Notes under the pieces: model-generated
Seen by the model: the letters and a program-made list of their open reading frames with translations, nothing else
What the model was told of the DNA's origin: nothing
Databases searched by the model: none
Made by a program: the position numbers and the translations under genes
NCBI GenBank assembly: GCA_016699975.1
Contig: CP064994.1
Location: 848,311 to 912,310, forward strand
Direction: 5' to 3'
From: Candidatus Moraniibacteriota bacterium
GTDB lineage: Bacteria; Patescibacteriota; Minisyncoccia; Moranbacterales; UBA1568
DNA: 64,000 nt
Part shown: positions 31,081 to 64,000 of the stretch, piece by piece
How the letters are laid out: each line of letters starts with the position of its first letter
Position numbering within the stretch: the stretch's first letter is position 1

Positions 31081-31089
31081 TCATAAAAG

Positions 31090-31118: not shown

Positions 31119-31169
31119 CTTTGTAACCGACCAATGTTGCAGGTAAGCGTGTCGTGCTACCTGCTGTTG

Positions 31170-31360
31170 GCGGTGAGATTTTGCGCTTTGCGCGAACTTT
31201 TTTCGAGCAAAGCACCAAATAAGGAAGCCGTCCCCGCCGTTGCGCTCCGCCCACTGGCGGATCGCTGTATCCAGAGAGAAGTTTCTTTACGATTTCGGAT
31301 TTTGCGCGCGGTTTTTTTCTCTCAAAAATGGAAAAGAAATCTTCTCTCTGGATACTCTGC
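31170..31360. repeat. Inverted repeat IR-A (left copy, ~190 bp). Its inverted partner lies at 38945..39133.
   Basis: The reverse complement of 31170..31360 matches 38945..39133 with only a few indels. The unit contains internal hairpins (GTATCCAGAGAGAAG...CTTCTCTCTGGATAC; CCGCCAGTGGGCGG). Confidence 0.85.
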
Positions 31361-31669
31361 TTTGGCAAGCAGAACGGCGGGAACGGCTGCTGTTGGTACG
31401 CCGCAGAGATAGAAATAAATGAGCTTGTGGTTATATTCTATCACATCAGGAAATATTTTGTTCACTCATTTCTCCATCTTTGCGGCGGAGCCATATCTAC
31501 AGTTTTCGGTAGTTCATTTGTTTGTGACTCCGGTTAAGCTGGTGCCAACCCATAATATGGATTGTGCTAGAGCACAATCAAATTTAATTGTGCTTGCCCC
31601 ACCCACCCGTGCGCGCACATCTGCTCGCAAAGGATAAAAGGGTTGCGAGCAAGACTCCCTTTTCATTCC

Positions 31670-33059
31670 CTATACTGAAGCCTTACTATGCTTGCTAATC
31701 TTTATTTGGGGAGTAATACCTAATTCCGAGCATTTTCTTGCCCAGGATTCAATTTTTTGTTTCAAGATTATAGAATTTATTTCAGAGATTTTAGTTGGCA
31801 ATTTTTTGTTTTCTATGCCAATCCAAAGACAGTAAACCCGGAAAGACTGATCCAGCTTTTTAGTATTCGCTTTCTTACTTATAAGTTCAAGTGTATTATT
31901 TGCCTGGTCACAAACATATCCTAGCTTTTGTGCAGTGCCAAATTTTACAGCATACACGGTATCCTCCTTCTTTACATCCCATGCCTCAATAGGCGTGCCC
32001 GATTTAACCTTAATTTTTGAAAAATCTTTATCCGCGATACTGTACCCGTGTTTCTTCAACTCTATATTAAAATCACTTTCTATTCCCATAATTTCAATCA
32101 AATCATCCTCTACTTTCTCTAGTTCTATGGTATCAATATACTCATTGAGTTGATCCAAATAATCTTCGTTAAATCTCATCCATTTACCTTGTGACAAAAT
32201 AACATTTTGACCATCAACGATATAATCAATTGATTCCTTGAGCGTCCGCGAGAACTCATTTGCATCTTCTTTTTTTACTTTAATCTTAATACTAAGTATT
32301 TGATCATCAGGAATCGAATGTTCTGATATAAATCCATTAAGCTGCTCAATCGAAAGCTCATCTAGCTCATTTGAAAAATTTCCTCCCCAATGAAATACAT
32401 ACTTTTCTTGTCCAGAAAATATGAAATCTACACCGACAAGGTCGTGGCTATTTGCGGTAAAGTCTGCACCGTCTTTGATTCCTTTTATTTCTTTGAGAAG
32501 CTTTTCTTCATAAGAAATGACTTCGGGAAGTCCATCTATAATCATCGTTCTGGGGAGCGCGAAAAGTTCTTTTGATTCAGCTAATCTAGTCAATTTATCA
32601 AGAAAATCCTCAAGGTCCTCTTTCTCAATTTCTGGATTAAGATTTACGGATGATCCGAATTTACCAGTTTTGCCGAAGTCAGCTTTTTGCTCTTCCAATA
32701 TAGATGCTTGCAAATAGTCAACGGATTCCCCACTTTCTATATCAAGCTTTGTATGTTTTGTATAGCTTCTTATTTCTTTTTTCTTCTTGCCAGCAAACTT
32801 TTTTGTAGATTTTTGACGAACATCCTGTTTATCAACAGCACGTTTTGCAATTTCTGTTCCAAAATCATGATCGCAGTGTTGCCGAAGATAAAAATGACTC
32901 TTCCCGTAACTAATAACGAAGCAATATTTGTCATTTTCCCAAAGATAAGCTGCAAAATAAATTAAATTCTTTGGCTTATTACCAGAAAAAAATTCCTCAT
33001 ATTCTTCCACCCACGGGATTTGTTTTGAGTTAATATCTTTTGAAAAATAGAAGCTATAT
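31670..33059 (-). CDS. Unknown protein, C-terminal ~462 codons of a ~505-aa gene interrupted by an IS630 element. It is the last gene of the R-M operon.
   Basis: ORF 31670..33073. Its first 5 codons are encoded by the IS terminal inverted repeat. The upstream exon is at 34140..34265. The protein is K/E-rich with no recognised domain. Confidence 0.45.
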
Positions 33060-34138
33060 CCCCCGCAAAACAAAATAGGGGATCTGGTATATTGGATTCA
33101 TGCCCGCAAAAACAAAAACTGAACTCTCCCCCGAAGAGAAAGATTTGCTCAAAGCGTATCTCAAAACATCCCCGCTCATTCTCGTTCGCCTGAAATGCCA
33201 TGCGATTCTTACGAGAGAAAAAGGAATGCCTCTGAAAGACATCGCCGATATTGTTTCGAGACACGAAAATACTATCGGTGTATGGATGAAGAACTGGGAA
33301 AAACAACGCATGGCGAGTATCTTCACCGGACATGAGGGAATCAGAACGCAAGTAAACTCACAGAAGAACAAAAGAAGAAATCAGAGAAGCCCTCGAAAAC
33401 CACCAAGTGAATACACTCTTCCAAAAACCTTTTGGGATGTCCCCGCCCTCAAAACATATGTTCAAGCGATATTTGGAGTCGTATTTGAATCCGTTCGTTC
33501 ATATCACTTCCTCCTTTCTTTTTGCAATCTGAGTTTCAAGTATCCCGATACCTTCGATCTTCACCGGAATGAAACTCATATTGTCGAAAGAATGGTTGAA
33601 ATACAGACAGAAATCAGCCCCTTCTCAAGGATGATTCGTGGGAAGTGTTTGCTTCCGATGAAGTGCGAATGGAATTGGAAGCTCTCACCAGAAAAGCGTG
33701 GCTCAAGAAAGGAGAACGGACGATCGTGCACGTGAATCGAAAGCGAGAAGCGCAAGTTATCTCGATTGCTCAATCAAAAAACTTTCGATGCCATCTTTAT
33801 GAAGTTCCCTGGCAAAACCAAGAAGAAATACTCAAAGCGTTGGAACAATTTCTGAAAGAGTATCCTGATAAAAATCTGTATCGTATGGGACAATGCGCGA
33901 TTTCCAGGGAAGGGGAATACGAAAAGCCCTCCGTAAAGGAGGACTTCTCGAGAGAGTGCATCTCATCAACTTGCCGCCATGCCCCCGATCATAATCCGAT
34001 TGAGCAGTGTGGAATACGGCGAAAGGGATGATGGCAAACACCCAATATGAAAGTTTTGAAAAAATGAAGATGGTGTTTTTCACGTATGTGAATGGACGAG
34101 CGTTTGAGTATCGAATCTAAGATTTTGTTTTGCGGGGG
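33060..34138 (+). mobile_element. IS630/Tc1-mariner family insertion sequence (~1.08 kb) with 17-bp terminal inverted repeats CCCCCGCAAAACAAAAT and TA-type flanks
   Basis: The left TIR is at 33060..33076. Its reverse complement is at 34122..34138. Flanks are ...TATAT| and |ATATAG. Confidence 0.75.
33100..34031 (+). pseudogene. IS630-family transposase (HTH plus DDE domain), frame break near 33650
   Basis: N-terminal HTH (LKCHAILTREKGMPLKDIADIV) and a C-terminal ...APDHNPIEQ motif (the YSPDLNPIE box) occupy two overlapping frames (ORFs 33100..33735 and 33645..34031). Confidence 0.65.
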
Positions 34139-34139
34139 A

Positions 34140-34265
34140 TATAGTTTTCCATTTTCCGTGCACAGAAGAGTGAATAACTTCGAGTCCCACAGACTCAAGC
34201 TTCAATTTCAAATCTAAAACACTGTCTTTTGGAATTTTGAAGATATTCAACTTCATAATGGTCAC
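34140..34265 (-). CDS. 5' exon (42 codons) of the IS630-disrupted unknown gene. Its start overlaps the methyltransferase stop (ATGA).
   Basis: MTIMKLNIFKIPKDSVLDLKLKLESVGLEVIHSSVHGKWKTI, after which the ORF runs into the IS TIR. Confidence 0.4.
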
Positions 34266-35041
34266 TTCATTCTATTTTCTGCAACCTTAAAGTATTTTTT
34301 ATCCTTCTCTATGCCAACCCAAGTTCTGCCAAGTTTTTTTGCAACAAATGTTGTTGTGCCACTCCCGAGAAACGGGTCAAGAACAACGTCGCCTTTATTA
34401 GACGAAGCAAGAATGATTCTTCTCAACATTTCCTCTGGTTTCTGCGTTGGATGAACTGCTCGATTATCCTTTCCGCGTATTCTTTCTTTTCCTTGTACCA
34501 ATGGCAACTGCCAAACATCCCGCATTTGCTTCAAGGAGCCATCTTTTTGTTTTTCAGGATTCAGTTTTTTTAATTCCTCATAGTTGAACACCCATCCCTT
34601 GCCTTTTACCGCCCATACAACAAATTCTGTAGAGTGTGTAAATACGCGCCTCGTCATATTTGGCATCGCATTTGTTTTTTGCCAAGTAATAATATTATTG
34701 ATCTTGAAATCAAGTTGTTTCAAGACAATCATTACCTCTGAAATATTGTGATATGTGCAGGAAATATAGATTGAGCCACCTTCTCTCAAAACACGATACG
34801 CTCCACCAATCCATTTGCGTGTAAACTGCAAGTATTCAGGAGCGGACATCCTGTCCCACTCTTCGTTTACCATGTACCAATCGCCACCTGTTTTATTTCC
34901 CTTCCAATGCAAGCCATTGCCAGAAAGGTTATAGGGAGGATCAGCAAAGATAAGATCAACAGATTCTTTCTCAATCTGCTTAGTCATTATCTCTACACAA
35001 GCTCCTAGGTATAGTTGGTTTTTCTTCATATTTTTATACAA
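34262..35041 (-). CDS. Beta-class DNA methyltransferase (N6-adenine or N4-cytosine; motif IV DPPY before motif I)
   Basis: IFADPPYN near the N-terminus and LDPFLGSGTT near the C-terminus give the permuted beta-class order. The length is 259 aa, typical of the HinfI/RsrI-like group. Confidence 0.8.
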   Translation of the reverse strand: MYKNMKKNQLYLGACVEIMTKQIEKESVDLIFADPPYNLSGNGLHWKGNKTGGDWYMVNEEWDRMSAPEYLQFTRKWIGGAYRVLREGGSIYISCTYHNISEVMIVLKQLDFKINNIITWQKTNAMPNMTRRVFTHSTEFVVWAVKGKGWVFNYEELKKLNPEKQKDGSLKQMRDVWQLPLVQGKERIRGKDNRAVHPTQKPEEMLRRIILASSNKGDVVLDPFLGSGTTTFVAKKLGRTWVGIEKDKKYFKVAENRMK

Positions 35042-36848
35042 GGCTTGCCTGCCATGTTGATATGGCGTTTGGAATATTCTTTAACCACTCTCCCGAGTCC
35101 GTATACGATTTTGATGAACCAATAATTTCTTCGTACAAACGAGAGATTTCATCGTGCTTCAAAAATTTATTCTCAGATTTTATCTTGACGAGAGTTTTCA
35201 AGACTGAAACAAAATCAGTAATTGATAATGGTACTATTTTTTGAGTTTTCCCCTCATATTCATATTTGATAGCTGTCCAAAAAGTATTGACCGTATCACG
35301 ATGAATTTTTGGAGCTATAAAGAGACAATATGTTTTCTTATCAGTGTATTTATTCTCAAAATCCCGCAAATGTCTCATAACTGGCTGCCCCTCATTGTAC
35401 CATTGATCCCTACCTGTAAGCATTGTAACTTCGCAGATAGCATTAAAGTTTCCATAGAAACATTCGATGTCTGGTGTGTTGGCAGGAGCAGTAAAAGTGG
35501 GCTCATTATCGTCTCCGACAGGATAGTTTGGTTGTATTTTGAGTGCGTCATTTAGTGCGTGGAGACCAAGAGAGGACAATTTTTCAAGCAGTATCGGTCG
35601 ATCCTCAAAGTCAAAAATATTTTCGAGGTCTTTGATGTAAGATTCAACTTGTTCTACCGCTTGTGATTTTTTGTGGTTACCCTCTTCTTGTAATGTCCGC
35701 CTCAAAACCCGCAACTCCTCAATGTATGCCTTGAGTTCCGTTTCTTGAAAAGTCTGATAATCCCTTATAGCAATACCTCTCCTCTGTAAGTCACTCTCGT
35801 ATTGCTCAATATCTTGAACGAGGTTTTTGATGATTTCCACATATTTTTCCTTAGTTTCCCAAGGTAGTTGTGGTTGCGAGATATCAGAAATATAGTTTAG
35901 ATACTCATCTTTTGTTGCAAAAACCCTTGATTGCGCATTATCAAAATCAAGCAAAGATTTTATCTCAACTGATCTTCTCGATTCCAAATCAATATAATAA
36001 CCACCACCACGAATAAATATGTAGCGTGTTAGACGAGAATATCGTATTGCATTATCTCCGTAATCGCGTAGATTTTTCAGAAGTCCTGAAACTGCACTTG
36101 TCTTTTTTGTCCCGAGAAATTTACTTACAAATTCTTTTTCATAGGAATCAAAAATTGCTTTCTGTTCATTTCTATTTTTTCCAGAAAGCTTATCGCGCAA
36201 TCCTATGAGGTTTGTCGCATAACCATCAATATCCTTGTAATTTACCAATGTTGGTACGAAAAGCGAAAATTCTTTCTTACTAATTCCTTTCGCCTCTTTG
36301 CCTCGCGCAATTTCTTTTCTGTTTACAGCATCTATCAAGTGAAGCGCACCAATAAATGGTTTAATATCATATCCACTATCCTGCGAATAATCGTCATTAT
36401 CCAAGTTCGGAACTTGCCATTTCAAGAAACTTCTCAAGAAAATTTCTCCAAGATCGAAATTTTCCTTCAAAAACAATCTTCCTAAATCTGTGATAAAAAT
36501 TTTCCCATCTTTAATGGAAACAAATCCGAATTTTTTTAGAGGATTCAATGATTGTCTGCCTCGCATCGAAGGATCCTCATAGTTCTTGGCATTGAAAATT
36601 GCCTCAGCTTCTTTGAAAGAAATTTCTTTTGATTGATCGTCAATCAGGCTTATCTGATCTTCTGAAAGACCATTATAAAACTGGCGGCTTCCATACCCGT
36701 AAACTCTATTTTTAATAAGCAAAATCTGATATTTTTTCTGATTTTCTAAATTCCACTCAAAATTTTCAATCTCCTGCAAAACGACTAGGAAATTTCTTAG
36801 TCTTTCAGGATTACGTAATGTTGTTGTAATTGACCAGGGCTTTTTCAT
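35034..36848 (-). CDS. Type IIS restriction endonuclease or nicking enzyme of the AlwI family (N.BstNBI/PleI/MlyI-like)
   Basis: 604 aa. The C-terminal block ...ICEVTMLTGRDQWYNEGQPVMRHL...YCLFIAPKIHRDT...IVPLSITDF parallels ...LGEVTTSKG...EPVTRH...YCLFIAPEIN...IIPLSLKQF, recalled from N.BstNBI. The N-terminal region is also similar. Confidence 0.7.
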   Translation of the reverse strand: MKKPWSITTTLRNPERLRNFLVVLQEIENFEWNLENQKKYQILLIKNRVYGYGSRQFYNGLSEDQISLIDDQSKEISFKEAEAIFNAKNYEDPSMRGRQSLNPLKKFGFVSIKDGKIFITDLGRLFLKENFDLGEIFLRSFLKWQVPNLDNDDYSQDSGYDIKPFIGALHLIDAVNRKEIARGKEAKGISKKEFSLFVPTLVNYKDIDGYATNLIGLRDKLSGKNRNEQKAIFDSYEKEFVSKFLGTKKTSAVSGLLKNLRDYGDNAIRYSRLTRYIFIRGGGYYIDLESRRSVEIKSLLDFDNAQSRVFATKDEYLNYISDISQPQLPWETKEKYVEIIKNLVQDIEQYESDLQRRGIAIRDYQTFQETELKAYIEELRVLRRTLQEEGNHKKSQAVEQVESYIKDLENIFDFEDRPILLEKLSSLGLHALNDALKIQPNYPVGDDNEPTFTAPANTPDIECFYGNFNAICEVTMLTGRDQWYNEGQPVMRHLRDFENKYTDKKTYCLFIAPKIHRDTVNTFWTAIKYEYEGKTQKIVPLSITDFVSVLKTLVKIKSENKFLKHDEISRLYEEIIGSSKSYTDSGEWLKNIPNAISTWQASLV

Positions 36849-36850
36849 AA

Positions 36851-38659
36851 TTATTTTGTAACTTTACAATAAAAGATTCTCTCGGCATTATCATCGCCAT
36901 TACTTTTTCCAGTTGTAAATGCTTTATACTCTTTTTCGAAAATTTCCACTTCTCCTTTGCTGTTCAAAATTCTCAGTATGTCCTTATCTTTCATTCTCGC
37001 ATTTGATCGCCCATCTTTTGAGTCGCCAGTATTATTATACGAAAGCAAAATATGATTGCATTTTGCATTCATAATCAAGTCTTCAAATGCCTGCGTCGCG
37101 TTCTTTAAACAATAAGAACTTTTAATGTGCGATCGATCCATTTTCTTTCCAATTCCAACGACTGCTGGCTTTTTCCATTCCACCAAGTTTTCTAAAAGAT
37201 GGTATGCGTCAGAATACTGTCTTGAATTGTAAGGGGGATCAATATATAAAACATCACAAGTAATTTTTCGAATAAGAGCGTTTGCATCTTCCCTATAAAC
37301 TTTGTTGTTTTTATTCCGGGAATAATCAAAATCTGGCACTAGCAGCTTCAATGGCTGTACAGTATCTAATTTTTTTCGGAACGCATCATAATGCCCAACG
37401 GTATTAGCAACCTTGTCTACTGCGTAAAGCAATGAACAAATAAGCAGACTTCTTTCGTCTTCATTTTCTGCAATACGGTCAATTTCTTCTCGTATTGCTC
37501 CAATTTTCCTTGCATTTTCTAACGAAAAATATGTTCCTCCAAAATGCTTAGAGAAATAATTATCGTCTTTGCTTTGTAGATTGTTTAAATGGCTTATTTT
37601 ATTTGCTACACTGGCAAGAATATCCTTACTAACACCAAGAAAAGCATTTAAACAAACATAGTTTGCATAAAGAAAATCATTCGAAATGATTTTGACTTCT
37701 GGGGTATTAAACCTTTCACCAACAACGCCCGTTCCAGAAAAAATATCACAAAGAGAATCTATTTTCCCGCATTTCTCAGAAATAATGTCCTCTATAAACC
37801 CGAGAAGTTTATGCTTGTTTCCTAAGTACCTTCTATTTTGCAATTGAAAATACCCGGCTTTTTGTTGTATTGGCTGAAAATAATGTTTCTCGACTTTTCG
37901 AACGCTCATTTCATAAACAGGTCTTTCAATCTCTAATAAGTCAAAAAGTGTCGCCTGTGTTCCATCAGCAACATAATCAAAATCAGTACCAGTCTTTTTT
38001 AACTTTTCACAAAAACTATAATGTTCATTTTCGGAAACAATAATAAAATCAATAACGGGTATCCCCATTATTTCGCCAGCTTGTGCTATTTTCTCAACAA
38101 CTTGAGTATCTTTTTCACTCGGAGTAGTATCTCCTGATGGATGATTATGTACCAATATGACGCTAGCGGCATTTAACTCCGTTGCTGGATGAAAAATTTC
38201 TCGTGGATGTAAGAGTGTTTTATCAAGAAGCCCAACACTCACTACTTCTTTCTTAAGCAAGCCATTCCTTGCATTGAGATATAGGCAGACGAGATGTTCT
38301 TTTTTCTTATCTCGTAGATCATAAATCAAAGACAGTACATCCTGTGAGTTTTTTATGATAAGCTCATTGGATTTTTCTTCTTGATAAAACCTCTTCACGA
38401 GAGAAACAGCAGAAACAACCTGAAGAGCCTTTGCCTGCCCAATTCCTGATATTTTTTGCAAATCATCCACGGATATATCTAAAAATCCTTTTCCAAATTT
38501 TTGGATCACTTGTTGGGATAATTTTTGAACATTTTTCCCTTTGATTCCGCTCCCAAGTAGAATAGCCAAAAGATCACTTTTGGAAAGTGCATCCGGTCCT
38601 TTCTTAAGGAACCTCTCTCTTGGTCTATCCACTTTTGGAATATCTTTTATTTTTGTCAT
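36851..38659 (-). CDS. Fusion protein with an N-terminal RadC-like JAB/MPN domain and a C-terminal Dam-like (D12-class, alpha) N6-adenine DNA methyltransferase
   Basis: Residues 1-225 carry a RadC HhH region (LSKSDLLAILLGSGIKGK...ISGIGQAKALQ) and the JAMM motif HNHPSGDTTPSEKD. Residues ~250-602 carry YLGNKHKLLGFIE...DIFSGTGVVG (D12 motif I) and LYIDPPYN (motif IV). Confidence 0.75.
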   Translation of the reverse strand: MTKIKDIPKVDRPRERFLKKGPDALSKSDLLAILLGSGIKGKNVQKLSQQVIQKFGKGFLDISVDDLQKISGIGQAKALQVVSAVSLVKRFYQEEKSNELIIKNSQDVLSLIYDLRDKKKEHLVCLYLNARNGLLKKEVVSVGLLDKTLLHPREIFHPATELNAASVILVHNHPSGDTTPSEKDTQVVEKIAQAGEIMGIPVIDFIIVSENEHYSFCEKLKKTGTDFDYVADGTQATLFDLLEIERPVYEMSVRKVEKHYFQPIQQKAGYFQLQNRRYLGNKHKLLGFIEDIISEKCGKIDSLCDIFSGTGVVGERFNTPEVKIISNDFLYANYVCLNAFLGVSKDILASVANKISHLNNLQSKDDNYFSKHFGGTYFSLENARKIGAIREEIDRIAENEDERSLLICSLLYAVDKVANTVGHYDAFRKKLDTVQPLKLLVPDFDYSRNKNNKVYREDANALIRKITCDVLYIDPPYNSRQYSDAYHLLENLVEWKKPAVVGIGKKMDRSHIKSSYCLKNATQAFEDLIMNAKCNHILLSYNNTGDSKDGRSNARMKDKDILRILNSKGEVEIFEKEYKAFTTGKSNGDDNAERIFYCKVTK

Positions 38660-38661
38660 AT

Positions 38662-38910
38662 CTATTTCAAAAGCTCATCACTCGCGACATCTAACGCCTG
38701 TGCGATCTTTTCGATTGTTGCAAGGGTGGGGTTTCCTTTCCCTGCTTCAATATTGCTCACTTGAGCACGATCAAAACCGAGCTTACGACAAATGTCGCCT
38801 TGCGACATTTTCTTCTGCTCTCGTATGCGTTTGATGTTTTTCCCAAGCTTGATTGAAGGGGTAGTCATATCTATAGATTTTATTATACCGATTGTTGTGT
38901 TGTATAACAA
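38662..38910 (-). CDS. Controller (C-protein-like) XRE-family HTH regulator at the head of the R-M operon
   Basis: LGKNIKRIREQKKMSQGDICRKLGFDRAQVSNIEAGKGNPTLATIEKIAQAL. The stop is 3 nt before the RadC-methyltransferase start. About 70-80 aa. Confidence 0.6.
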   Translation of the reverse strand: MLYNTTIGIIKSIDMTTPSIKLGKNIKRIREQKKMSQGDICRKLGFDRAQVSNIEAGKGNPTLATIEKIAQALDVASDELLK

Positions 38911-38944
38911 TAATGTGATATATTACAATACACAAAGGAAAAAA

Positions 38945-39133
38945 GCAGAGTATCCAGAGAGAAGTTTTCTTTTCCATTTTTGAGAAAAAAACCGCGCGCA
39001 AAATCCGAAATCGTAAAGAAACTTCTCTCTGGATACAGCGATCCGCCAGTGGGCGGAGCGCAACGGCGGGGACGGCTTCCTTATTTGGTGCTTTGCTCGA
39101 AAAAAGTTCGCGCAAAGCGCAAAATCTCACCGC
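38945..39133. repeat. Inverted repeat IR-A' (right copy)
   Basis: Reverse complement of 31170..31360. Confidence 0.85.
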
Positions 39134-39255
39134 AAATTGAAACTTCCGAATCCGAAAGGGAAAAGGATCGGTGCGCCGAAGGCGCGGAAGAAGACAGAAG
39201 GTGGCGTCGCTCCGCGACGAATCTGAATGGGGTGGACAGGCTGAAGCGGGCGGAT
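39130..39255. repeat. Inverted repeat IR-B (left copy, ~126 bp). Its partner is at 40678..40805, and it directly abuts IR-A'.
   Basis: The reverse complement of 40678..40805 equals 39130..39255 nearly perfectly. It begins with a near-copy (1 mismatch in 9) of the tRNA-Ser 3' end (CTCACCGC versus CTCTCCGC). Confidence 0.85.
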
Positions 39256-39284
39256 TTGTCCTTGTTTCGTATCCAAAAGCAATT

Positions 39285-40690
39285 ATGATCAAACCAAAAT
39301 ATTTTCTCTACGCGCGCAAGAGTACTGAAGACGATGATCGCCAGGTAATGAGTATTGAGGCGCAGCTTTTTGAATTGCGAGAATATGCGCGTAAAGAAAA
39401 TCTTGAAATCCTGAAGGAATTTCAAGAGTCGAAAAGCGCAAAGACGCCAGGGCGAGAGGTATTCGGAAAGTTGATGGAACGAATTGAAAACGTGATGGAG
39501 TCGGTATTCTCGCGTGGCATCCTGATCGCTTGGCGCGTAATTCGATGGATGGCGGGCGCGTGGTGTACGCCGTCGATCAAAAGAAAATCGTGTCTTTGCG
39601 CTTTCCGACTTTTTGGTTTGAACCGACCCCGCAGGGGCTCTTTATGTTGCAAGTGGCGTTCGGACAATCCAAATACTATTCCGACAACCTCGCCGAGAAT
39701 ATCAAGCGAGGAATCCGCCAAAAATTGCGCCGTGGCGAGTGGCTCAACCTCGCTCCCTTTGGTTATATGAACGATCCTGTGAAGCGAAATATTGCGCCAC
39801 ATCCCACGGAAGCGCGGATTGTGCAGCTCGCGTTTGATGAGTACGCAAAAGGAACGCACACTTTCTTGTCTCTTGGCGCATTTTTGGCGGAACTTGGCGT
39901 GGTCAGTCGGAATGGAACGCCACTTGCCAAAGCTTCCATCAAACGGCTCATCACCAACCGTGCCTATCTCGGTTTTGTGAAGCACGGTAAGGAATGGTTT
40001 GATGGAAACTTTGAGCCCCTGATTTCTCCCGCTTTGTTTGAAGCCGTGCAGAAGATACTTTTGGCGAGAGAGCGACCGCGCAAGCGGAAAATGAAGCATG
40101 ATTTTCCGTTTACTGGACTTTTTCGATGTGGCGAGTGTGGTAGTATGATTTCCGCCCAATGGACGACGAATCGGCATGGCACGAAGTATCGCTACTATCG
40201 GTGCTCGAAAAAGCGCGGTCGCTGTTCGCAGTCGTACATTCAGGAGAAAACCCTCGCCAAACAATTACGAGCACGGCTTCAAACCATTTCGCTGTGTGAT
40301 CACTACACTGACTGGATGTTGGGTAAGGTGAAGGAATGGGAGCATGAAGAAGTATCGGCATCACACAGCGAAATACAAAATCTTTCAGCAACTATCAAAG
40401 CGAGTGAGGCGCGCCTGGAGAAGTTGGTTTCGATGTATTTAGATGGTGATGTTACCAAAGAAATCTACCTTCGCAAAAAAGATGAAAGTATGCGCGCCAC
40501 TCTCGCTTTGCGGGAAAAGCTGAAAGATTTGGAAAGCGGGAGAAATCAGTGGGTCGAACCCCTGCGAGAATGGATTTTGGATACGAAACAAGCCGATTTT
40601 TTGGTCGAGCATGAGGATTTGCACCAAACAAAAAGGCTCGTCCAAAAAATCGGAACGAACCCCATTGTTCGTGACAAATCCGCCCGCTTC
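39285..40690 (+). CDS. Large serine recombinase (resolvase catalytic domain, recombinase domain, zinc ribbon, coiled coil) with one frame break near 39500
   Basis: The N-terminal catalytic region is YARKSTEDDDRQVMSIEAQL... The second frame continues with ...GILAWHPDRLARN... The CGECGSMISAQW...YYRCSKKRGRC zinc ribbon follows. The end coordinate is approximate because the ORF runs into IR-B' and the tRNA. Confidence 0.75.
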
Positions 40691-44027: not shown

Positions 44028-44145
44028 CAAGAATCCCAATTGTTGCTTGTAAATGCACGTGCTATGAAACCTAACCATACCATGTCAATCGCAAAAAAAA
44101 TCGGGAGAGCGATCGCGTAGAGTTTCCAAAACATAATACTGTATC

Positions 44146-44544
44146 TTACTTGTTAAGAGAGGTGACACTGAGCTGTAGAACCGTAGCAAAGAGCCCCCAC
44201 AATAAATAGGGAATATTCACGTAGACGACCCACTTCATGTGAGGCCACACGGCAAAGAAGGCCCATACAAGCGTAGCGACGACCAGGAGAATATCAATAG
44301 ATGCCAGAAAGTTGTTTCTGAGACCAAATTGAAGTGGAGTAAAAGCGAAATTAAAGAGGAGATTGAGCGCAAACGGCACCGCGACAGACGCAGGGATATG
44401 CTTCACAAGGACCTTGTAAAAGACCGCTCCGAAGGAAACGGCAATAATAATATACAATGCTGTCCACACGGGTCCAAAGAGCCAGCTCGGTGGAGCCCAT
44501 GACGGTTTCTCGAGCTCGGCGTACCATTTGTAGGAATTTTCCAT
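44146..44544 (-). CDS. tspO: TspO/MBR family tryptophan-rich sensory protein
   Basis: WYAELEKPSWAPPSWLFGPVWTALYIIIAV is the family N-terminal signature. 132 aa with 4-5 TM helices. Confidence 0.7.
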   Translation of the reverse strand: MENSYKWYAELEKPSWAPPSWLFGPVWTALYIIIAVSFGAVFYKVLVKHIPASVAVPFALNLLFNFAFTPLQFGLRNNFLASIDILLVVATLVWAFFAVWPHMKWVVYVNIPYLLWGLFATVLQLSVTSLNK

Positions 44545-44683
44545 AGTTCGATTGTGAATAATGAACCACCTTTATCATACACCTTTTCAGCGTAGAGCGC
44601 TTCCATGAAACTTGAAAACTGTGCATGTTTCATCTTGATAAAAGATTTTTCTCCTTCTGCACTCACGGCTCTCGATATTAATA

Positions 44684-45043
44684 TCATTTGTAGAGAAGTA
44701 TTCCCTCTATAGCCAACCATATCTTTACAAGAGATTTTCTGTATTCTGCGCAATATTCCCTGCATAAGTTATTTTCCATCCCTCTCCTGCGCCCCGGGTC
44801 TGCGGGTGGGCAGCCAGGCCAACAACAAGGACGCGTCTTTCCTTCGGCGAGTTCAATGCATGCTCGTCTGATATGCTCTCTCCTTGTTTCCAGTTTCTTC
44901 ACGAGAGTGATCCAGCAAATCCACTCGTTTCGGGCGAGCGGCGTGAGTTTGTCCCAGATAGTCTTTACATTCGGCACAGATTTGAGAGTCTCTTTCAAAT
45001 CCTTTGGGACCACGTGCAATCTCTCAAAAGATTTTTTTATCAT
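44684..45043 (-). CDS. YdeI/OmpD-associated (DUF1905-like) family protein with an atypical extended C-terminus
   Basis: ...NEWICWITLVKKLETRREHIRRACIELAEGKTRPCCWPGCP... is the family core. The ORF continues ~45 aa past the usual end. Confidence 0.5.
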   Translation of the reverse strand: MIKKSFERLHVVPKDLKETLKSVPNVKTIWDKLTPLARNEWICWITLVKKLETRREHIRRACIELAEGKTRPCCWPGCPPADPGRRRGMENNLCREYCAEYRKSLVKIWLAIEGILLYK

Positions 45044-45796
45044 AATTAATTAAAAAGAATAGCCGTTTTTATGATTCACCATTTTCTGGATAAAGGAATT
45101 TTTGTCTGACATGCTCTTTCTTCAAAGTTCATATACAGACCTTCAGTGTAAAAAATGGACACCCACTTTTGGTGTAAGGATCTTCGAGGTAAAGAATCTC
45201 AGATAGTTCCGGTATTCTTGAGGAGCAGGCGTTATCAAGGCGACTCATTGACAGAGGAAAAGAAGCATTCCCCCACGTCGAGGGAAACTTATTGATATCA
45301 TGAAGTTCCACTCTTTTTCCCATAGGCTTGAATAAACAAACACTAACCGATATCATGCGACCGAATCTGAAATTACTACGATTTGAAATCTCTTCTACAT
45401 TTTTCTCTCACACGAATACTGGAATACACTCAAAAGGCCGCCTTATTACTTTTAGCCCAGGGCACTTGATATTTCTGGTGATATATCTTCTCGTTCTGTT
45501 TCTGATTTTCAATTTCAAAGGAGAACCTATTTTAGGAAAAAATCCGTAGGTTTTTGTGACGAAGAACACTTGTATCTCAATCACACTCGACAAGCTTGGA
45601 CGGAGCAAAACCAAAAAATTTCCCCATCATTTTTTATGTGAATTTCCTCTAACACTCCCCGTCGCGAAAAGAAAAGGCGCGGCACAATATATTTTTGCAT
45701 CTGTTCACTTTTCCCTCCCGTGCACACGCATCATGACTGCTGTTTTTGAAGAACAACATAAAACGCCGAGAATGACCTCCTGAAATACTACTACCC

Positions 45797-46440
45797 TCAT
45801 AACTTCCTTAAATCAATTCCATCATACGAGTCAATTATCATATCAGCATGGTTCAATTGATCTTGGTAAAGTAGTCGTGATCCCGATACAAAAACATGCC
45901 TGCATTTTCGCTGCTTGAATGCCTTTTTTGGAGAATCCTCAACGACGAAACAATTGCTCGGATCGGTTCCCATTTCTTCGGCAGCGTAAAGATAGATGGC
46001 GGGATTAAGGTTTCGATACATTGCCAACATCGGACGCTTTATAAATATGTTTTCCAAACTTCTTCTCCAGCTCAATATTTTTCTCGCAAGTCCAAGCAAA
46101 TGGTCGTTAGAAGAAGTGGCGATACACGTTTTCAGTCCAGCAGAACAATGCGGCATGGAAATTCTCAAAACCCGTAATGTAGGCAGACTGTTAAATATTC
46201 TTGTTCAAGCAAAGATTGACGCTCGGCAGTCAATGAATCCACGTCGCCTTGAAAATTATATCTTTCTTTGAGTAACACTGTACCTCACGCAAATGCATAC
46301 CCATCAAAGCAGGGCGACTTCTTCGCGGTTATAGACCGCTTCATGTTTCCTGAAAATTCCACATCGGCGTTGTCAAATAGAACTTCACTGTCTATGACAA
46401 CGCCATCCATATCAAAAATGAGAGTGTCGTATTTCACCAC
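45797..46440 (-). pseudogene. HAD-superfamily hydrolase (beta-PGM-like) split by a frame break
   Basis: Motif I LIFDMDGVVIDSE is on the minus strand near 46400, in a different frame from the C-terminal part ...AIYLYAAEEMGTDPSNCFVVEDSPKG...VFVS (ORF 45797..46168). Confidence 0.55.
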
Positions 46441-46554
46441 CGATAAGTCCCTTTCACAAGGTCATCAAAAAATAATTTTGTCCACGGGCGAGCTTTTCTC
46501 TTTATCTTTATAGCTAAACCAGACAACTTCCTCACTTCTGCCGCTGGCCTGATC

Positions 46555-46773
46555 TCACCATGGAAATCGGAAGAATAGCACGTCATCTCGAACCATCGTC
46601 CCTTCTGACTTGCCGTGCGCTTGCGCTTCAAAAGTACCGACATACTGTATAGTTTTGGGAATTAAATCAATAGTCAACTCCTCCTTGATTTCCCGTGTCA
46701 ATGCTTCTTGGTCAGATTCCTGTCCGTCTCGCTTTCCGCCCGGATGTATTAAGTGTCCTTTCCGCGCGAGCAT
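46555..46773 (-). pseudogene. NUDIX hydrolase fragment (Nudix box near the N-terminus, 72 aa)
   Basis: GGKRDGQESDQEALTREIKEELTI matches G(x5)E(x7)REUxEExGU. The protein is too short and lacks the N-terminal beta strands. Confidence 0.5.
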
Positions 46774-46799
46774 GTTCCAAGAATCTTCTTATCCTTTAT

Positions 46800-47885
46800 A
46801 TAAATCCACGCCAACTTATCAATGTAATTTTTTCCATACGAATATAATATACTCTAAGAATTGGTTAGCCGATATTCTTAAGCGCATTAGCCACTTTATG
46901 GATTCTCTTTTCTCAGTTTTTGACGCTTGTTCATACTTACTCATCTAAATTTACTCTGTTGTACTCATAGAGATTTTTTCAAGGTCATAAAAGCGTTTTC
47001 ATATTGGTTTTCCAGATTCGACAAACCGAGTGGGTTTTTCCTAAATAAATAGATTTCGCTTTTTAAGTAGCTTCCTGGGCACGCTTGGGGCGTCCACGTC
47101 TTTCTTGTCAGTTACAAATTTGTTACCAAATCGAAATATACCTTTTTGCGAAAGATAAAATAGTGTGATCTCTTCCAAAATAAAAATTACTTCTCGTTCA
47201 CCAACTCCGTGTCCAGTATCTTTACCATCCTCCTCTGACATATTTTCTAAAAACGGGGTCATTCTTGTATAAATCCAGTACAGCTTTATAGGTGTGTTGG
47301 GAAGGCATTCAGGAATTGTCTAAAAGGAGTTGCCCAAAAGTAGTAAAGGAAAATGCTTTAAGTATCCATTTTTGATCTTTCTTCAAAGATTCAGAAAAAG
47401 CGTTTTTATGCGAAATCATTAACAATTTAAATTTATTCCGCAATTTATAAACTGGGTTATCGGAATTAAAATAGAGATAATCACCACAAAAAATGACCGT
47501 TCCAATACCACCTGTATGCTATATTTCTGAAGCAAGATGTTTTAGATACTCAAAACATTTCTTTGGACTTTTGAGCATTCCCTATACGGCTTTATTGGAA
47601 TACCGAACAAGAGTATCCCTTCACTCCGTAGGAACTTTGTTGATATCGAAAAATTTGTCTCCAGAAAATTTTTTTCATATCTAGGGGATTAAATCCTCGA
47701 TTGTGACATCAAGGGTTTTCGCAATTTTGCTCACAATGAACACTGATGTCTCTTTAATAACATAAGTTTCAATTTTTCGGGAGAGAGAATGGATTCCTTC
47801 GGGGCCGGGCTCATGAGACATTTCGCTCTTCGAATCCTGGGCGCCCAGCAGCTAGCGTTCTTCTCTTCCGTGTTCAATTTCCAAG
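46800..47885. repeat. Tandem direct repeat unit 1 (~1.09 kb, AT-rich, degenerate coding). It ends in a partial tRNA-Ser 3'-end-like sequence.
   Basis: About 93% identity to 48262..49340 with many short indels. The 3' end GGAGAGAGAATGGATTC resembles the tRNA 3' end GGAGAGAGTGGGATTC. Confidence 0.8.
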
Positions 47886-48261
47886 GTGTTTTTGGACGAA
47901 GTTCTGAACATTTTTTGAGCAAACCCCCAATAAGGAAGCTAAATTGTTGCTGCTTGGAAACCTCGCCAATTTTTAAAAGCTACAATTTGATTTATAGCAA
48001 GACTTTTTTCTTCTAAAGGAAAAAAGAAAAACTTTGTAGTATTCTGCTCTGTAATGAGCAGGACGGCGGGGGCTGTCCGCTTTTGTATTCGCTCGGGCGT
48101 GGCGGAATTCCCCCCAAACTCCCCTTCCGCTTTTTCTTCTTCAAACGGAACGGGAACGGAAGCTGTATAGAGCAAAATTCTCCTCCAACCTCTTCTTTGT
48201 CGTCATTTCCGCTTGCTCCCGCCTCTAAAACTTTTCGGCGATTTGCGACTAATTTTCACCT

Positions 48262-49339
48262 TTACAAAATCCACGCCAACTTATCAATGTAATTCTTTCC
48301 ATACGAAAATAATATACTCTAAGAATTGGTTAGCCGATATCTTAAGCGCATTAGCCACTTTATGGATTCTCTTTTCTCAGTTTTTGACGCTTGTTCATAC
48401 TTACTCATCTAAATTTACTCTGTTGTAATCATAGAGTAATTTCCTTTCAAGGTCATAAAAAGTGTTTTCATATTGGTTTTTCAGATTCGACAAACCGAGT
48501 GGGTTTTTCCTAAATAAATAGATTTCGCTTTTTAAGTAGCTTCCTGGGCACGCTTGGAGCGTCCACTTCTTTTCTTGTCAGTTACAAATTTGTTACAAAA
48601 TCGAAATATACCTTTTGCGAAAGATAAAATAGTGTGATCTCTTCCAAAATAAAATTACTTCTCGTTCACCAACCCGTGTCCAGTATCTTTACCATCCTCC
48701 TCGACATATTTTCTAAAAACGGGGTCATTCTTGTATAAATCCAGTACAGCTTTATAGGTGTGTTGGTAGGCATCAGAATTGTCTAAAAGGAGTTGCCCAA
48801 AAGTAGTAAAGGAAAATGCTTTAAGTATCCATTTTCGATCTTTCTCAAAAGATTCAGAAAAGGGTTTTATGCGAAATCATTAACAATTTAAATTTATTCC
48901 GCAATTTATAAACTGGCTATCGGAATTAAAATAGAGATAATCACCACAAAATGACCGTTCAATACCACCTGTATGCTGTATTTCTGAAGCAAGATGTTTT
49001 AGATACTCAAAACATTTCTTTGGACTTTGAGCATTCCCTATACGGCTTATTCGAATACCGAACAAGAGTATCCCTTCACTCGTAGGAACTTTGTTGATAT
49101 CGAAAAATTTGTCTCCAGAAAATTCTTTTTTCATATCTATGGGATTAAATCCTCGGTTTGACATCAAGGGTTTTCGCAATTTTGCTCACAATGAACACTG
49201 ATGTCTCTTTAATAACATAAGTTTCAATTTTTCGGAGAGAGAATGGGATTCCCCTTCGGGGCCGGGCTCGCGAGACATTTCGCTCTTCGAATCCCACTGG
49301 GCGCCCAGCAGCTAGCGTTCTTCTCTTCCGTGTTCAATT

Positions 49340-50069: not shown

Positions 50070-50142
50070 GCGCTCGTAGCTCAGTGGATAGAGCGTCTGG
50101 TTGCGGTCCAGAAGGTCGCAGGTTCGATTCCTGCCGAGCGCA
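50070..50142 (+). tRNA. tRNA-Arg (anticodon GCG read from loop TTGCGGT). No encoded CCA.
   Basis: GCGCTCGTAGCTCAGTGGATAGAGCGTCTGGTTGCGGTCCAGAAGGTCGCAGGTTCGATTCCTGCCGAGCGCA folds as a perfect cloverleaf with 7-bp acceptor, D-stem GCTC/GAGC, anticodon stem TCTGG/CCAGA and T-arm GCAGG/CCTGC. Confidence 0.7.
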
Positions 50143-50223
50143 CATCCCAAACTTCTTCTCTTCCAGAATATCGAAACACCGATCACACGGTGTTTTTCGG
50201 TTTCCGAAACACAAACTGAACTA

Positions 50224-61710: not shown

Positions 61711-64000
61711 TCAATGTTCGTTCGATCGCGAAAGAGAGAGAGCTTCATCCCGATCGCGTACCACAAAATTTATCAACCGGTCGGGCACAAAAATCGTTTT
61801 CACTCGTTCTTTGCCCGAGAGAAACTTCTGCACGTCTTTGTGCTCGAGTACTTTTTCGACCGCGTCTTGTTCCGAGAGACCAGGCACAATCGAAAGCCGC
61901 GCGCGCAACTTACCATTTACCTGAACCGCACATTCCACCCGTTCTTCCTGGAGCAACGACTCATCAAAAGAAGGCCATTCGGAAAACACAATGGATGAGG
62001 GATTCCCGAGACGTTCCCACAACTCTTCCGCAATATGTGGCGCGAAAGGTGAGAGCAGTCGCAAGAGAATTTCGAGTGTATTTCGTGATACTGTCTCTCG
62101 ACGTTCAAACTCGTTTACAAGAATCATGAGGGCGGATATCGCGGTATTGAATCGCATTGCTTCGATGTCTTCCGAAACTTTGCGAATCGTTTTGTGGAGA
62201 AGCGGAAGCAACTGTTCGTCGGCGTTCTCCTTTCCGTCCTTCACGTTCGTCTTCTCCTCATTCATCGCGCTTCCTCCCCTCTTCGGGCTCTCCATATCCA
62301 TTTCATCACTTCTCTCCTCTCTCTTTCTTGCAATCTTCCATATTTTTTCCAGGAAACGACGCGCCCCAGCAATACTCTCCGTGCTCCAAGCAACATTCCG
62401 CTCAAACGGCCCCATGAACATTTCGTACACCCGAAGCGTATCCGCGCCAAATCGTCGCACAATGTCGTCGGGACTGACAACATTCCCTTTCGACTTACTC
62501 ATTTTGACACCGCCTTCGGCCAGAATGAGTCCATGGCTCGTGCGCTTCCTGTAGGGTTCGGATGTCGGAACTACTCCAATGTCGAAGAGAAACTTATGCC
62601 AGAAACGCGAATACAAAAGGTGAAGAGTCGTGTGCTCCATACCGCCATTGTACCAATCAACCGGGGTCCAGAAACGAAGCGCGGCGTCTCCCGCAAGGCA
62701 CTCGCGATTTTTCGGATCAGCATAGCGCAAAAAATACCAACTCGAACCTGCCCAATTGGGCATGGTGTCGGTCTCGCGGCGCGCGGGAGCACCACAAACC
62801 GGGCAGGGCACGCGTACCCACGATTCGATTTCGGCAAGTGGCGATTCTCCCGTATCGGTCGGCTGATACGACGAAACGTTCGGAAGCGTAACTGGCAATT
62901 GCTCTTCCGGAACGGGAATCCAGCCAGCATTCGCCCAGTCCCTTTCCCGGCTCTCATCCTTCGAAACTTCCAACTGAGGGCGATCGACAGGCGAAGTTGT
63001 TGACGCTCCCGGCGCGTGAGAGAGAGGAGTCTCAGAATCGTGCATCTTGGCGTTTGCCCGACACGCTTCACAAAAAATAAGAGGGATCGGTTCGCCCCAG
63101 TATCGCTGCCGAGAAAATACCCAGTCGCGCAATTTATACCGCACCGTTTTTTCTCCACGGCCTCGTTTTTGGAGCCACGCCGTGATTTTCTCCCGCGCTT
63201 CCTCTGAAGAGAGACCGGAAAATTCGCCGGAATGAATAACGATACCGTCCCCCGTAAAACATTCCTCTTTTTTACAAAGTATATTCCACAGATAACGAAA
63301 GTTGGAAAGATTCAAAAATGAATCCATGTCGTTTGCATGAACCCATATTGGGTCGTGATGAAGCGAGTGCTCTTCCTTGGGTTTTTCCCATTCTTCATTC
63401 TCCAACTCAAAAAGCATGCCGACTCCTTCCGCATATCGATTCACATCTTTATGAGCGGCAAAAAAATTCGTGTGAACTTCCCCGCCAATCATTCGAACAA
63501 ATTTCGGATTTCGATATCCAGTCTCCTCGATAATTTCTCTGGTCGCCGCTTCTCCCGGATCTTCACCCTCTTCTACTCCTCCAATAATTCCGGAATGCCA
63601 GCCGAATTTTTTCCAATCGAGGCACAAGTATCGATCTTCATTGCTCCGCTTCAAAAATACGAAAACTGTTTTTCGTCGAACGGTCGGCTTGTCTGAACGA
63701 ACTGCATCTTTTCCGCTCGAATCCGAAAAAAACGGAGCAATCGACTGTCGTATCGAAATGCCGTGTTGCTTCGCAAACGCATTGTCCCGTTCATCATGGG
63801 CGGGAACAGACATCACGGCACCCGTCCCGTAGTGCGCGAGCACATATTCCGCAACAAAGAGTGGCACCCGTTCTTTAGTACAGGGGTGTACCGCCTCGAT
63901 TCCTTCGAGCCTCACCCCTGTTTTTTCTTTCGTGAGATCGGTTCGTTCTTCTTCGGTTTTCCGCCGGACACCGATACAGTATTCCTTGACCGCCTCCCAA
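61711..64000 (-). CDS. leuS: Leucyl-tRNA synthetase. It is partial because the N-terminal HIGH and CP1 editing regions lie beyond the window end. A complete NUDIX domain is inserted in frame at the leucyl-specific-domain position.
   Basis: GTGAVMSVPAHDERDNAFAKQHGI, GEFSGL...YKLRDWVFSRQRYWGEPIP, VKMSKSKGN and the C-terminal anticodon-binding region are present. Residues ~57-245 (nt ~63180..63747) contain GGVEEGEDPGEAATREIIEETGY, a Nudix box. Confidence 0.85.
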   Translation of the reverse strand, partial: WEAVKEYCIGVRRKTEEERTDLTKEKTGVRLEGIEAVHPCTKERVPLFVAEYVLAHYGTGAVMSVPAHDERDNAFAKQHGISIRQSIAPFFSDSSGKDAVRSDKPTVRRKTVFVFLKRSNEDRYLCLDWKKFGWHSGIIGGVEEGEDPGEAATREIIEETGYRNPKFVRMIGGEVHTNFFAAHKDVNRYAEGVGMLFELENEEWEKPKEEHSLHHDPIWVHANDMDSFLNLSNFRYLWNILCKKEECFTGDGIVIHSGEFSGLSSEEAREKITAWLQKRGRGEKTVRYKLRDWVFSRQRYWGEPIPLIFCEACRANAKMHDSETPLSHAPGASTTSPVDRPQLEVSKDESRERDWANAGWIPVPEEQLPVTLPNVSSYQPTDTGESPLAEIESWVRVPCPVCGAPARRETDTMPNWAGSSWYFLRYADPKNRECLAGDAALRFWTPVDWYNGGMEHTTLHLLYSRFWHKFLFDIGVVPTSEPYRKRTSHGLILAEGGVKMSKSKGNVVSPDDIVRRFGADTLRVYEMFMGPFERNVAWSTESIAGARRFLEKIWKIARKREERSDEMDMESPKRGGSAMNEEKTNVKDGKENADEQLLPLLHKTIRKVSEDIEAMRFNTAISALMILVNEFERRETVSRNTLEILLRLLSPFAPHIAEELWERLGNPSSIVFSEWPSFDESLLQEERVECAVQVNGKLRARLSIVPGLSEQDAVEKVLEHKDVQKFLSGKERVKTIFVPDRLINFVVRDRDEALSLSRSNEH

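Follow-up and report, generated by a model that had tools for sequence, protein, structure and literature searches.

Few enzymes have been studied as closely as the aminoacyl-tRNA synthetases (aaRSs), whose bacterial forms are considered conservative in architecture. The canonical bacterial leucyl-tRNA synthetase (LeuRS; model TIGR00396, structures 1H3N/2BYT from Thermus thermophilus and 4AQ7 from Escherichia coli) has a class Ia catalytic core with the HIGH and KMSKS motifs, a CP1 editing domain with the TTRxDT and HDxRD motifs, CxxC zinc motifs and an anticodon-binding domain. The LeuRS of Mycoplasma mobile is described as lacking the leucine-specific domain (LSD) (PMC3643597). The presence of an unrelated enzyme domain in a class Ia synthetase has a precedent in the isoleucyl-tRNA synthetase (IleRS) with a GNAT domain (NCBIfam NF040702). 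Here we describe a LeuRS gene at the right-hand edge of a 64,000-nucleotide stretch of DNA, referred to below as the window, from Candidatus Moraniibacteriota bacterium (assembly GCA_016699975.1, contig CP064994.1, positions 848,311 to 912,310). The product shares all the parts of the canonical enzyme listed above. On the other hand, it has a Nudix domain of 157 aa in place of an 11-residue loop of CP1, no LSD, and two stretches predicted to be disordered.

The gene lies on the minus strand. Translation of positions 61714-63999 gave 762 aa of LeuRS with no internal stop. The stop codon occupies 61711-61713, the open reading frame (ORF) runs open at the right edge of the window, and the N-terminal 301 codons lie outside it. 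An earlier note on this DNA had described the frame as uninterrupted, which the translation bears out, and the sequences that it quoted are all present. A plus-strand reading of 63180-63747 was discarded, as this strand is rich in stops and holds no ORF there. Although about 300 residues short, the fragment scored 564.7 bits against TIGR00396 (leuS_bact), above the equivalog cut-off of 548.4, and by its sequence the product is a LeuRS of the bacterial type. A full-length protein of 1063 aa (P0009), 99% identical to the window LeuRS, is encoded on a 6.9-kb Logan contig that was assembled independently from another sequencing run. Over 2289 shared nucleotides the two differ at 13 positions with no indels, and a gene resembling orotidine-5'-monophosphate decarboxylase is found downstream of leuS in both. 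The earlier note had raised the possibility of a chimeric join; because an independent contig carries the gene without indels, an assembly chimera is excluded. The 13 differences comprise 6 synonymous and 7 non-synonymous changes and, being all that separates the two strains, are too few to give a ratio of non-synonymous to synonymous rates any power. The HIGH motif lies outside the window (HTGH, aa 56-59 of P0009); both it and the KMSKS motif within the window are intact. The best explanation of these sequence features is a functional LeuRS of the bacterial type, whose leucine aminoacylation and post-transfer editing would be expected to be unaffected by the Nudix insert.

The site of the insert was located by alignment. 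Residues 3-87 of the fragment correspond to residues 279-362 of the T. thermophilus enzyme (1H3N) and residues 245-315 to 374-444, and the insert stands in for the loop 363-373. It starts 16 residues after the editing-site Asp of CP1, and the match to the LeuRS editing domain, PF13603, is interrupted between profile positions 146 and 152. In an insert-free LeuRS from the same candidate phylum (P0283), the same two blocks are separated by nine residues, QGNNFNDEG. It is essentially certain that the Nudix domain is located in a surface loop of the CP1 editing domain, just after the HDxRD motif. The earlier note had instead put it at the leucyl-specific insertion and had supposed that other LeuRSs carry about 35-60 aa between these blocks; the split PF13603 match, the T. 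thermophilus alignment and the nine residues of P0283 correct both points. The residues of TTRxDT (T272, R273, D275 and T276) and of HDxRD (H369, D370, R372 and D373) are invariant in 69 relatives. Since the post-transfer editing motifs of CP1 are fully conserved, the Nudix domain adds to editing and is no substitute for it. Concerning the LSD, we confirmed its absence from the window enzyme: the segment LILAEGGVKMSKS aligned without gaps to the LSD-less M. mobile LeuRS (3ZIU) and to the E. coli LeuRS in two pieces only. The tetrapeptide before KMSKS is GKDG in M. mobile and EGGV in the window LeuRS. M. mobile LeuRS is without CP1 altogether, whereas CP1 of the window LeuRS is present and enlarged. 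The short spacing before KMSKS (62491-62530 in the window) is also seen in the alignment consensus for most of the 69 Patescibacteria relatives.

The primary structure of the insert was then examined. Pfam NUDIX (PF00293) matched with 38.9 bits in the whole fragment and 41.9 bits in the interval 63180-63747, where the gathering score is 21.1; the match spans profile positions 2-118 of 134 with an E value of about 1e-10. The Nudix box fits the consensus GX5EX7REUXEEXGU exactly. The isolated insert was predicted to fold independently with a mean confidence score (pLDDT) of 95, and the predicted structure has the alpha/beta/alpha fold of Nudix enzymes. In a model of the full-length P0009 (pLDDT 86.5, pTM 0.79), both junctions of the Nudix domain had pLDDT values of 85-93; this modelled confidence suggests that the attachment is fixed rather than floppy. 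We regard it as essentially certain that the insert is a complete, autonomous Nudix domain carried in frame in LeuRS, and as judged from its motif it is apparently a catalytically competent pyrophosphohydrolase. The earlier note had read the domain in this way and had recognized the box; its reading came through both the profile search and the fold prediction that it had proposed. Its interval of about 190 aa (63180-63747) does include the Nudix domain but is too wide, adding LeuRS residues, 3 upstream and about 29 downstream of the 157 aa.

An intein was considered and rejected. The junctions RQSI/APFF and LCKK/EECFT (the slash marks the boundary) have no Cys, Ser or Thr at the start of the insert or right after it, there is no His-Asn at its end, and all 157 aa are explained by the Nudix fold. 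The junction residues and the complete fold also argue against a mobile insertion or selfish element. Taking into account that the gene was assembled independently without indels and that more than 100 homologous LeuRSs carry the insert, an artefact or selfish element of any kind, for which nothing speaks beyond the odd architecture, is scarcely conceivable.

We surveyed the distribution of the architecture in several ways. When one genome was scanned for each GTDB species, at least 164 loci were found, 80 of which were retained. In about 68 of the 80, the Nudix domain lies inside an ORF of 930-1700 aa with HIGH and KMSKS. Where labels were informative, the loci came almost all from Patescibacteria (Moran-, Sacchari-, Paceibacterota, Kaiser-, Taylor-, Magasanik-, Berkel-, Uhr- and Buchananbacteria), and loci from Gracilibacteria and Peribacteria were added when UGA was read as Gly. 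Five LeuRS-Nudix loci come from metagenome-assembled genomes (MAGs) labelled as archaea (Woesearchaeota, Methanosarcinales; L010, L015, L022, L067 and L079). The archaeal label of L010 is doubtful, because a gene encoding a bacterial DnaA N-terminal domain (DnaA_N) adjoins; the neighbours of the other four are uninformative. In L022, L067 and L079, alaS adjoins leuS. In public databases, hundreds of Patescibacteria LeuRSs have a Pfam NUDIX match, so that the uniqueness implied at first does not stand. A search with the insert alone had returned 8 matches and made the insert appear rare; this was an artefact of the word index, overturned by the genome scan, the LeuRS searches and phmmer. An exhaustive phmmer search, run with the insert on 1.84 billion cluster representatives, gave only 319 matches with E<=1e-3 and, of these, 193 with E<=1e-10. 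Among 148 newly listed representatives, 103 had LeuRS motifs, 26 were free-standing (<=215 aa) and 19 were of other kinds, many of them of about 280 aa. The Nudix subfamily is thus almost confined to LeuRSs of Patescibacteria.

Conservation of the box in the scan loci is uninformative because the scan pattern, REIxEETGY, builds it in. Conservation was thus re-measured on sets found through LeuRS and on the exhaustive phmmer set. The strict box was present in 113 of 120 relatives found through LeuRS, and G56, E62, R70, E71, E74, E75 and G77 were invariant across 75 aligned sequences. Beyond the box, W45, W50, K100, N103, R104 and W135 are family invariants, with K100, N103 and R104 invariant or almost so in the alignments. 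In the X-loop of the window enzyme, Phe occupies positions +17 and +18 after the box, and an aromatic pair (Phe/Tyr) is found there in 167 of 168 family members. In the widest phmmer set, 115 of 162 domains had the strict box and 130 of 162 retained R-E..EE. Six proteins (P0162, P0163, P0169, P0197, P0227 and P0270) have Trp for the box Gly, as in WWVEENE...EETWY; these are most likely from organisms using genetic code 25 (UGA=Gly) translated with UGA=Trp. The catalytic motif of the LeuRS-Nudix family is strongly conserved.

These figures bear on whether the fold might have been co-opted as a non-catalytic module that serves to sense nucleotides, brace the structure or bind tRNA. One sub-lineage has two linked changes in the box (E to Q in GX5E, and R to M, A, Q or T in RE), and 47 of the 162 domains fail the strict box, some of them most likely through code-25 mistranslation. 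With a perfect box in the window domain and the metal-binding E..EE retained nearly universally across the family, we regard such a role as very improbable.

We then asked what the nearest LeuRSs hold in the CP1 loop. When the whole fragment served as query, all 120 of the 120 best LeuRSs carried the insert, an apparent universality that is misleading because the insert in the query inflated the ranking. The 120 nearest LeuRSs were therefore collected again with the insert deleted from the query. A Nudix domain was found in the CP1 loop of about 58-60 of them, with all named sources in Patescibacteria, so that the same insertion, which the earlier note had proposed to look for in other LeuRSs, occurs in about half. 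At least 46 of the 120 had no insert in the loop, with 61-100 residues from HDxRD to SRQRYWG. Three (P0277, P0278 and P0303) held a nucleotidyltransferase-like domain (PF10706/PF14907, aa ~400-494), joined at the identical junction, LPIRQSI/ALNVSDF...; one (P0345) held a serine hydrolase (PF06821, residues 392-552), and two (P0290 and P0309) unidentified inserts of about 115 aa. The distribution is patchy even within one candidate phylum: among the Moraniibacteriota, P0010 and P0030 have the Nudix domain and P0283 does not. Because relatives hold nothing, a Nudix domain, a nucleotidyltransferase-like domain or a serine hydrolase at this one place, the CP1 loop behaves as a cassette site, most often filled by the Nudix domain.

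A second hotspot lies in the stretch that leads from the catalytic core to CP1 (~aa 240-400), where, depending on the lineage, we observed Ham1/ITPase, a MutT-like Nudix (GGKHENESPDECVKRECREELGI), an alpha/beta hydrolase and a DUF559 endonuclease-like domain; the carriers are P0015, P0082, P0016, P0050, P0095, P0020, P0115 and P0017. In P0017, the region of the zinc motif also includes a block of about 110 aa, which may be ASCH-like.

The LeuRS-type Nudix domain also occurs in several copies and outside LeuRS. Single LeuRSs with two or three copies were found (P0129, 941 aa; P0130, 1140 aa; P0148, 923 aa). The extra copies often have a variant box, GQT...A.xEI.EETGY. In a neighbour-joining tree, the free-standing proteins of 160 aa form one clade that includes a single LeuRS-embedded sequence. 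Among the neighbours of a free-standing gene, namely uracil-DNA glycosylase, transposase and type II secretion genes, there was no functional clue. In three MAGs with Bacteroidaceae or Clostridia labels, we found free-standing proteins of 277-287 aa (L044:1574-2407, L046:3746-4609 and L076:3731-4591) made of half of CP1, the Nudix domain and the C-terminal segment of CP1. The half-CP1 covers profile positions of about 84-143, and its editing residues have decayed to SHNQKD or AHIPEH. That the flanks are retained while the editing residues have decayed points to some importance of the CP1 piece for the Nudix domain. In two of the three MAGs (L044 and L046), a CYTH-domain gene lies directly upstream, and in L044 the gene of an AMP-binding (adenylate-forming) enzyme follows.

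Concerning the activity, it is known that aaRSs are the main cellular source of diadenosine tetraphosphate (Ap4A) and related Ap4N, and that Nudix enzymes cut these asymmetrically (PMC13627108). Specificity in Nudix enzymes is set by the X-loop (PMC5389931), and Nudix Ap4A hydrolases all have a Tyr or Phe that lies 17 aa past the box and stacks on the adenine (PMC2425470). The window Nudix has Phe at this position. Its characterised structural neighbours include diadenosine polyphosphate (ApnA) hydrolases and RppH, namely the Ap4A hydrolase of A. aeolicus (3I7U), Rv2985, T. thermophilus Ndx1, CT771 and RppH; by PDB id, those that follow the top match 2AZW include 3I7U, 9CXX, 1VC8, 4MPO and 4S2X. 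The best single-sequence matches in the PDB were the lupin Ap4A hydrolase and DR1025. Because aaRSs are the chief source of Ap4A and Nudix cleavage is asymmetric, and on account of the X-loop and structural evidence, we lean, at somewhat less than even confidence, towards an activity of the ApnA-hydrolase/RppH class on adenine-linked polyphosphates, most simply on Ap4A made by LeuRS. The Nudix domain would cleave the adenine-linked polyphosphate bridge in a Mg2+-dependent reaction. The substrate would be an Ap4A-type dinucleoside polyphosphate, or an RNA end with a 5'-polyphosphate or Np4, which is chemically equivalent. Ap4A would come from the synthetase itself, by reaction of the aminoacyl-adenylate with ATP, and LeuRS would thus bring along the enzyme that disposes of its alarmone by-product. 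Among the substrates put forward in the earlier note, Ap4A is the one that the aromatic residue at +17 and the structural neighbours favour most, as a deduction from sequence and fold.

The same note had also suggested hydrolysis of Leu-AMP or of mis-activated adenylates, which would make the Nudix domain a pre-transfer editing enzyme. The insert does sit within the editing domain. Nevertheless, this is chemically the least likely of its suggestions, because an aminoacyl-adenylate is an acyl-phosphate and no nucleoside diphosphate-X. Moreover, known aminoacyl-AMP hydrolases are enzymes of the HIT family, the canonical editing site of CP1 is intact with its motifs invariant, and many sister LeuRSs do without the insert. 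We consider pre-transfer editing highly unlikely.

Several observations weigh against an ApnA-hydrolase activity. Structurally, the window Nudix is nearest to 2AZW, a structural-genomics protein whose function is unknown; in the profile search AvrM14, a Nudix that decaps mRNA, scored best, and the LeuRS-type subfamily includes no characterised protein. Identity to characterised Nudix enzymes is just 14-23%, for which reason the substrate class is unreadable from the fold alone. The aromatic residue at +17 is needed for Ap4A hydrolases and is insufficient by itself. In E. coli, LeuRS is not known as one of the strongest producers of Ap4A. In addition, about half of the nearest LeuRSs are without the insert, and others have unrelated enzymes in the same loop. 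Congruence between Nudix and LeuRS core was also weak, though significant, in the GTDB set (Mantel r 0.21, reached by 0 of 999 permutations), with the same nearest neighbour for both in 5 of 56 cases. For comparison, CP1 and LeuRS core similarities correlated with a rho of 0.42; in the set found with the whole-fragment query, r between Nudix and core was about 0, probably through selection bias. Mean pairwise identity was 0.33 for Nudix and 0.50 for the LeuRS core; the Nudix domain evolves faster than the core. The patchiness, the alternative cassettes and the weak congruence are equally compatible with a role tied to LeuRS and with an exchangeable accessory module or hitchhiking.

We therefore considered that the Nudix may be a housekeeping enzyme, for example one that sanitises the nucleotide pool, which hitchhikes at a permissive site in an essential, constitutively expressed gene and has no mechanistic link to LeuRS. 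The other occupants of the CP1 loop and its emptiness in many close relatives agree with this, as do the second hotspot before CP1 with its own set of enzymes, the weak congruence, and the free-standing homologues of about 160 aa, which imply that the domain can work alone. On the contrary, the subfamily is almost restricted to LeuRS and has been re-duplicated inside it, up to three copies, and the free-standing forms of about 280 aa keep their CP1 flanks. In addition, the MutT 8-oxo-dGTPase equivalog model of NCBIfam (NF008044) gave 13.2 bits against a cut-off of 148, the score with the NudE model was far below its cut-off, and the RppH models behaved likewise, as given below. Hitchhiking is in our estimation an improbable account, though one to be taken seriously.

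Another explanation starts from the position of the insert, as CP1 is the domain that docks the CCA end of the tRNA. The tethered Nudix would here remove a group of the pyrophosphate type from RNA or tRNA ends, such as a 5'-triphosphate, an NAD or Np4 cap, or a 3'-pyrophosphate installed on tRNA by a toxin. AvrM14, an mRNA-decapping Nudix (10.1101/2023.11.14.566975), was the best profile-to-PDB match (E 6e-9, profile positions 48-158), and the match included the K..R motif. RppH structures are among the neighbours, and the top, weak, NCBIfam matches are RppH models. However, these models (PRK00714) gave 21-24 bits (best 23.8) against cut-offs of 116-259, no RNA-binding extension is evident, and only its position ties the Nudix to tRNA. 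Mature tRNA 5' ends, in addition, are monophosphates. The alternative cassettes in the loop, a nucleotidyltransferase and an esterase-type hydrolase, are all enzymes for which an RNA end would be a plausible substrate, and under the same explanation they would likewise work on the acceptor end; both the Nudix part and this extension to the other cassettes seem unlikely to us.

A broader possibility, which we rate as doubtful, is that the CP1 loop is a swappable site by which alternative enzymes are bolted onto CP1, where the acceptor end of the tRNA docks, each acting on products of LeuRS or on the ends presented to it. The Nudix, nucleotidyltransferase and serine hydrolase domains would then destroy alarmones of the Ap4A type or repair and de-modify tRNA ends, removing for instance toxin-installed pyrophosphate or caps. 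If this were true, an aaRS would possess an unrecognised built-in layer of alarmone control or tRNA repair.

The features of the LeuRS gene are summarized in Table 1. CEAC in the zinc module aligned with CEACG of the T. thermophilus enzyme, and the cysteines are invariant or almost so in the aligned relatives; what the earlier note had taken for an extra insertion from CEAC to CPVC is thus the ordinary conserved zinc motif of Thermus-type LeuRSs. Its Glu/Lys-rich stretch before the anticodon-binding domain is indeed present and lineage-specific. Apart from the Nudix domain, the genuine lineage-specific extras of this LeuRS are the two stretches with predicted disordered cores.

Table 1. Positions of the leucyl-tRNA synthetase gene and its parts in the window.
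Feature	Position	Strand	Basis
Leucyl-tRNA synthetase gene, C-terminal 762 codons and stop	61711..63999	-	Translation, TIGR00396, match to P0009
CP1 editing domain before the insert, fragment aa 1-87	63739..63999	-	PF13603 positions 56-146; T. thermophilus 279-362
Editing-site motif AHDERD	63784-63801	-	HDxRD motif of CP1
Inserted Nudix domain, 157 aa, APFFSD...NILCKK	63268..63738	-	Fragment aa 88-244, relative to T. thermophilus LeuRS; P0009 aa 389-545
Nudix box GGVEEGEDPGEAATREIIEETGY, metal-binding catalytic motif	63514..63582	-	Exact match to GX5EX7REUXEEXGU
X-loop specificity region FFAAHKDVNR, aromatic pair at +17/+18 after the box, then K..NR	63436..63465	-	
Rest of CP1 and linker to catalytic core (ECFTGDGIVIHSGEFSGL...)	63130..63267	-	PF13603 positions 152-181; T. 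thermophilus 374-417
Zinc-binding CxxC...CxxC module	62794..63072	-	CEAC 63061-63072, CPVC 62794-62805
Lineage-specific stretch inside zinc module, core predicted disordered	62923-63042	-	P0009 residues 625-646, pLDDT <50
KMSKS catalytic loop, EGGV before it where most LeuRSs have the leucine-specific domain	62491..62505	-	
Glu/Lys-rich linker before anticodon-binding domain, core predicted disordered	62212..62325	-	P0009 residues 865-892, pLDDT <50

Elsewhere in the window, the minus strand at 46558-46773 holds an ORF of 72 aa with a near-canonical Nudix box, GGKRDGQESDQEALTREIKEELTI, and a Pfam NUDIX score of 27.6 bits. This ORF is cut short, ORFs in other frames overlap it, and it is probably a pseudogene fragment, in agreement with the separate decayed Nudix fragment that had been noticed at 46555-46773. 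The hidden Markov model of the LeuRS-type Nudix family did not match it, which places it outside the subfamily. It lies, together with fragments of HAD hydrolases (45800-46168 and 46285-46440, minus strand), in a region of 5 kb (44100-49300) where all ORFs are shorter than 150 aa and the GC content is 0.41, compared with about 0.49 in its neighbours. This looks like a patch of decayed genes, unusual in a compact Patescibacteria genome. At 28000-40000 the GC content falls to 0.38-0.40, against 0.46-0.53 elsewhere; this region, in which two ORFs of about 600 aa each lie side by side (35034-38659, minus strand), may have been acquired horizontally. ARAGORN placed a tRNA-Arg with anticodon GCG at 50070-50143 on the plus strand.

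The window gene is an ordinary member of a large, unstudied class in which a Nudix or another enzyme is nested in the LeuRS editing domain. Our literature searches found no description of a LeuRS-Nudix fusion, in line with the earlier note, and the main survey of the Nudix clan never mentions tRNA or a synthetase (PMC5389931). A search of the LeuRS fragment against NCBIfam turned up no model of a LeuRS with a Nudix domain. The architecture is visible in public databases, where the Pfam matches are precomputed and one example is a UniRef entry of 2015 from Magasanikbacteria. NCBI names the insert-bearing LeuRSs 'class I tRNA ligase family protein' and their insert-free sisters 'leucine--tRNA ligase'; the insert seems to push LeuRS out of the equivalog naming rule.

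Within a large radiation of bacteria, entire enzymes, mostly of a dedicated Nudix subfamily, have been inserted again and again into the proofreading domain of LeuRS. If the Nudix degrades nucleotides of the Ap4A type, this would be the first aaRS covalently joined to a hydrolase of its own alarmone by-product, and would give a direct handle on the role of Ap4A in cells with minimal regulatory capacity. If it acts on the ends of tRNA or other RNA, the proofreading domain would have been extended into a platform for RNA-end repair. The variable CP1 cassette could also serve as a lineage marker within Patescibacteria.

Among the known proteins close to the insert are the free-standing Nudix proteins of about 160 aa from Patescibacteria (P0002-P0007, L028, L059 and L062), which belong to the same subfamily with 41-52% identity from end to end. 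They have the same box, aromatic pair and K..NR, and differ in being encoded by independent genes. The Nudix ApnA hydrolases and RppH (3I7U, 9CXX, 1VC8, CT771, lupin 1F3Y and E. coli RppH) share the fold, the box and the aromatic residue about 17 positions after it; identity to them is 14-21%, the scores with the RppH models fall below the cut-offs, and those hydrolases stand alone rather than within another enzyme. AvrM14 (8DP8/8DP9), an effector of flax rust, is eukaryotic and secreted, and 2AZW is an uncharacterised Nudix of E. faecalis; the identity of these two to the window Nudix is 16-23%. The IleRS with a GNAT domain likewise joins a class Ia synthetase to an unrelated enzyme domain, but the synthetase and the domain are both different, and a curated model exists for it.

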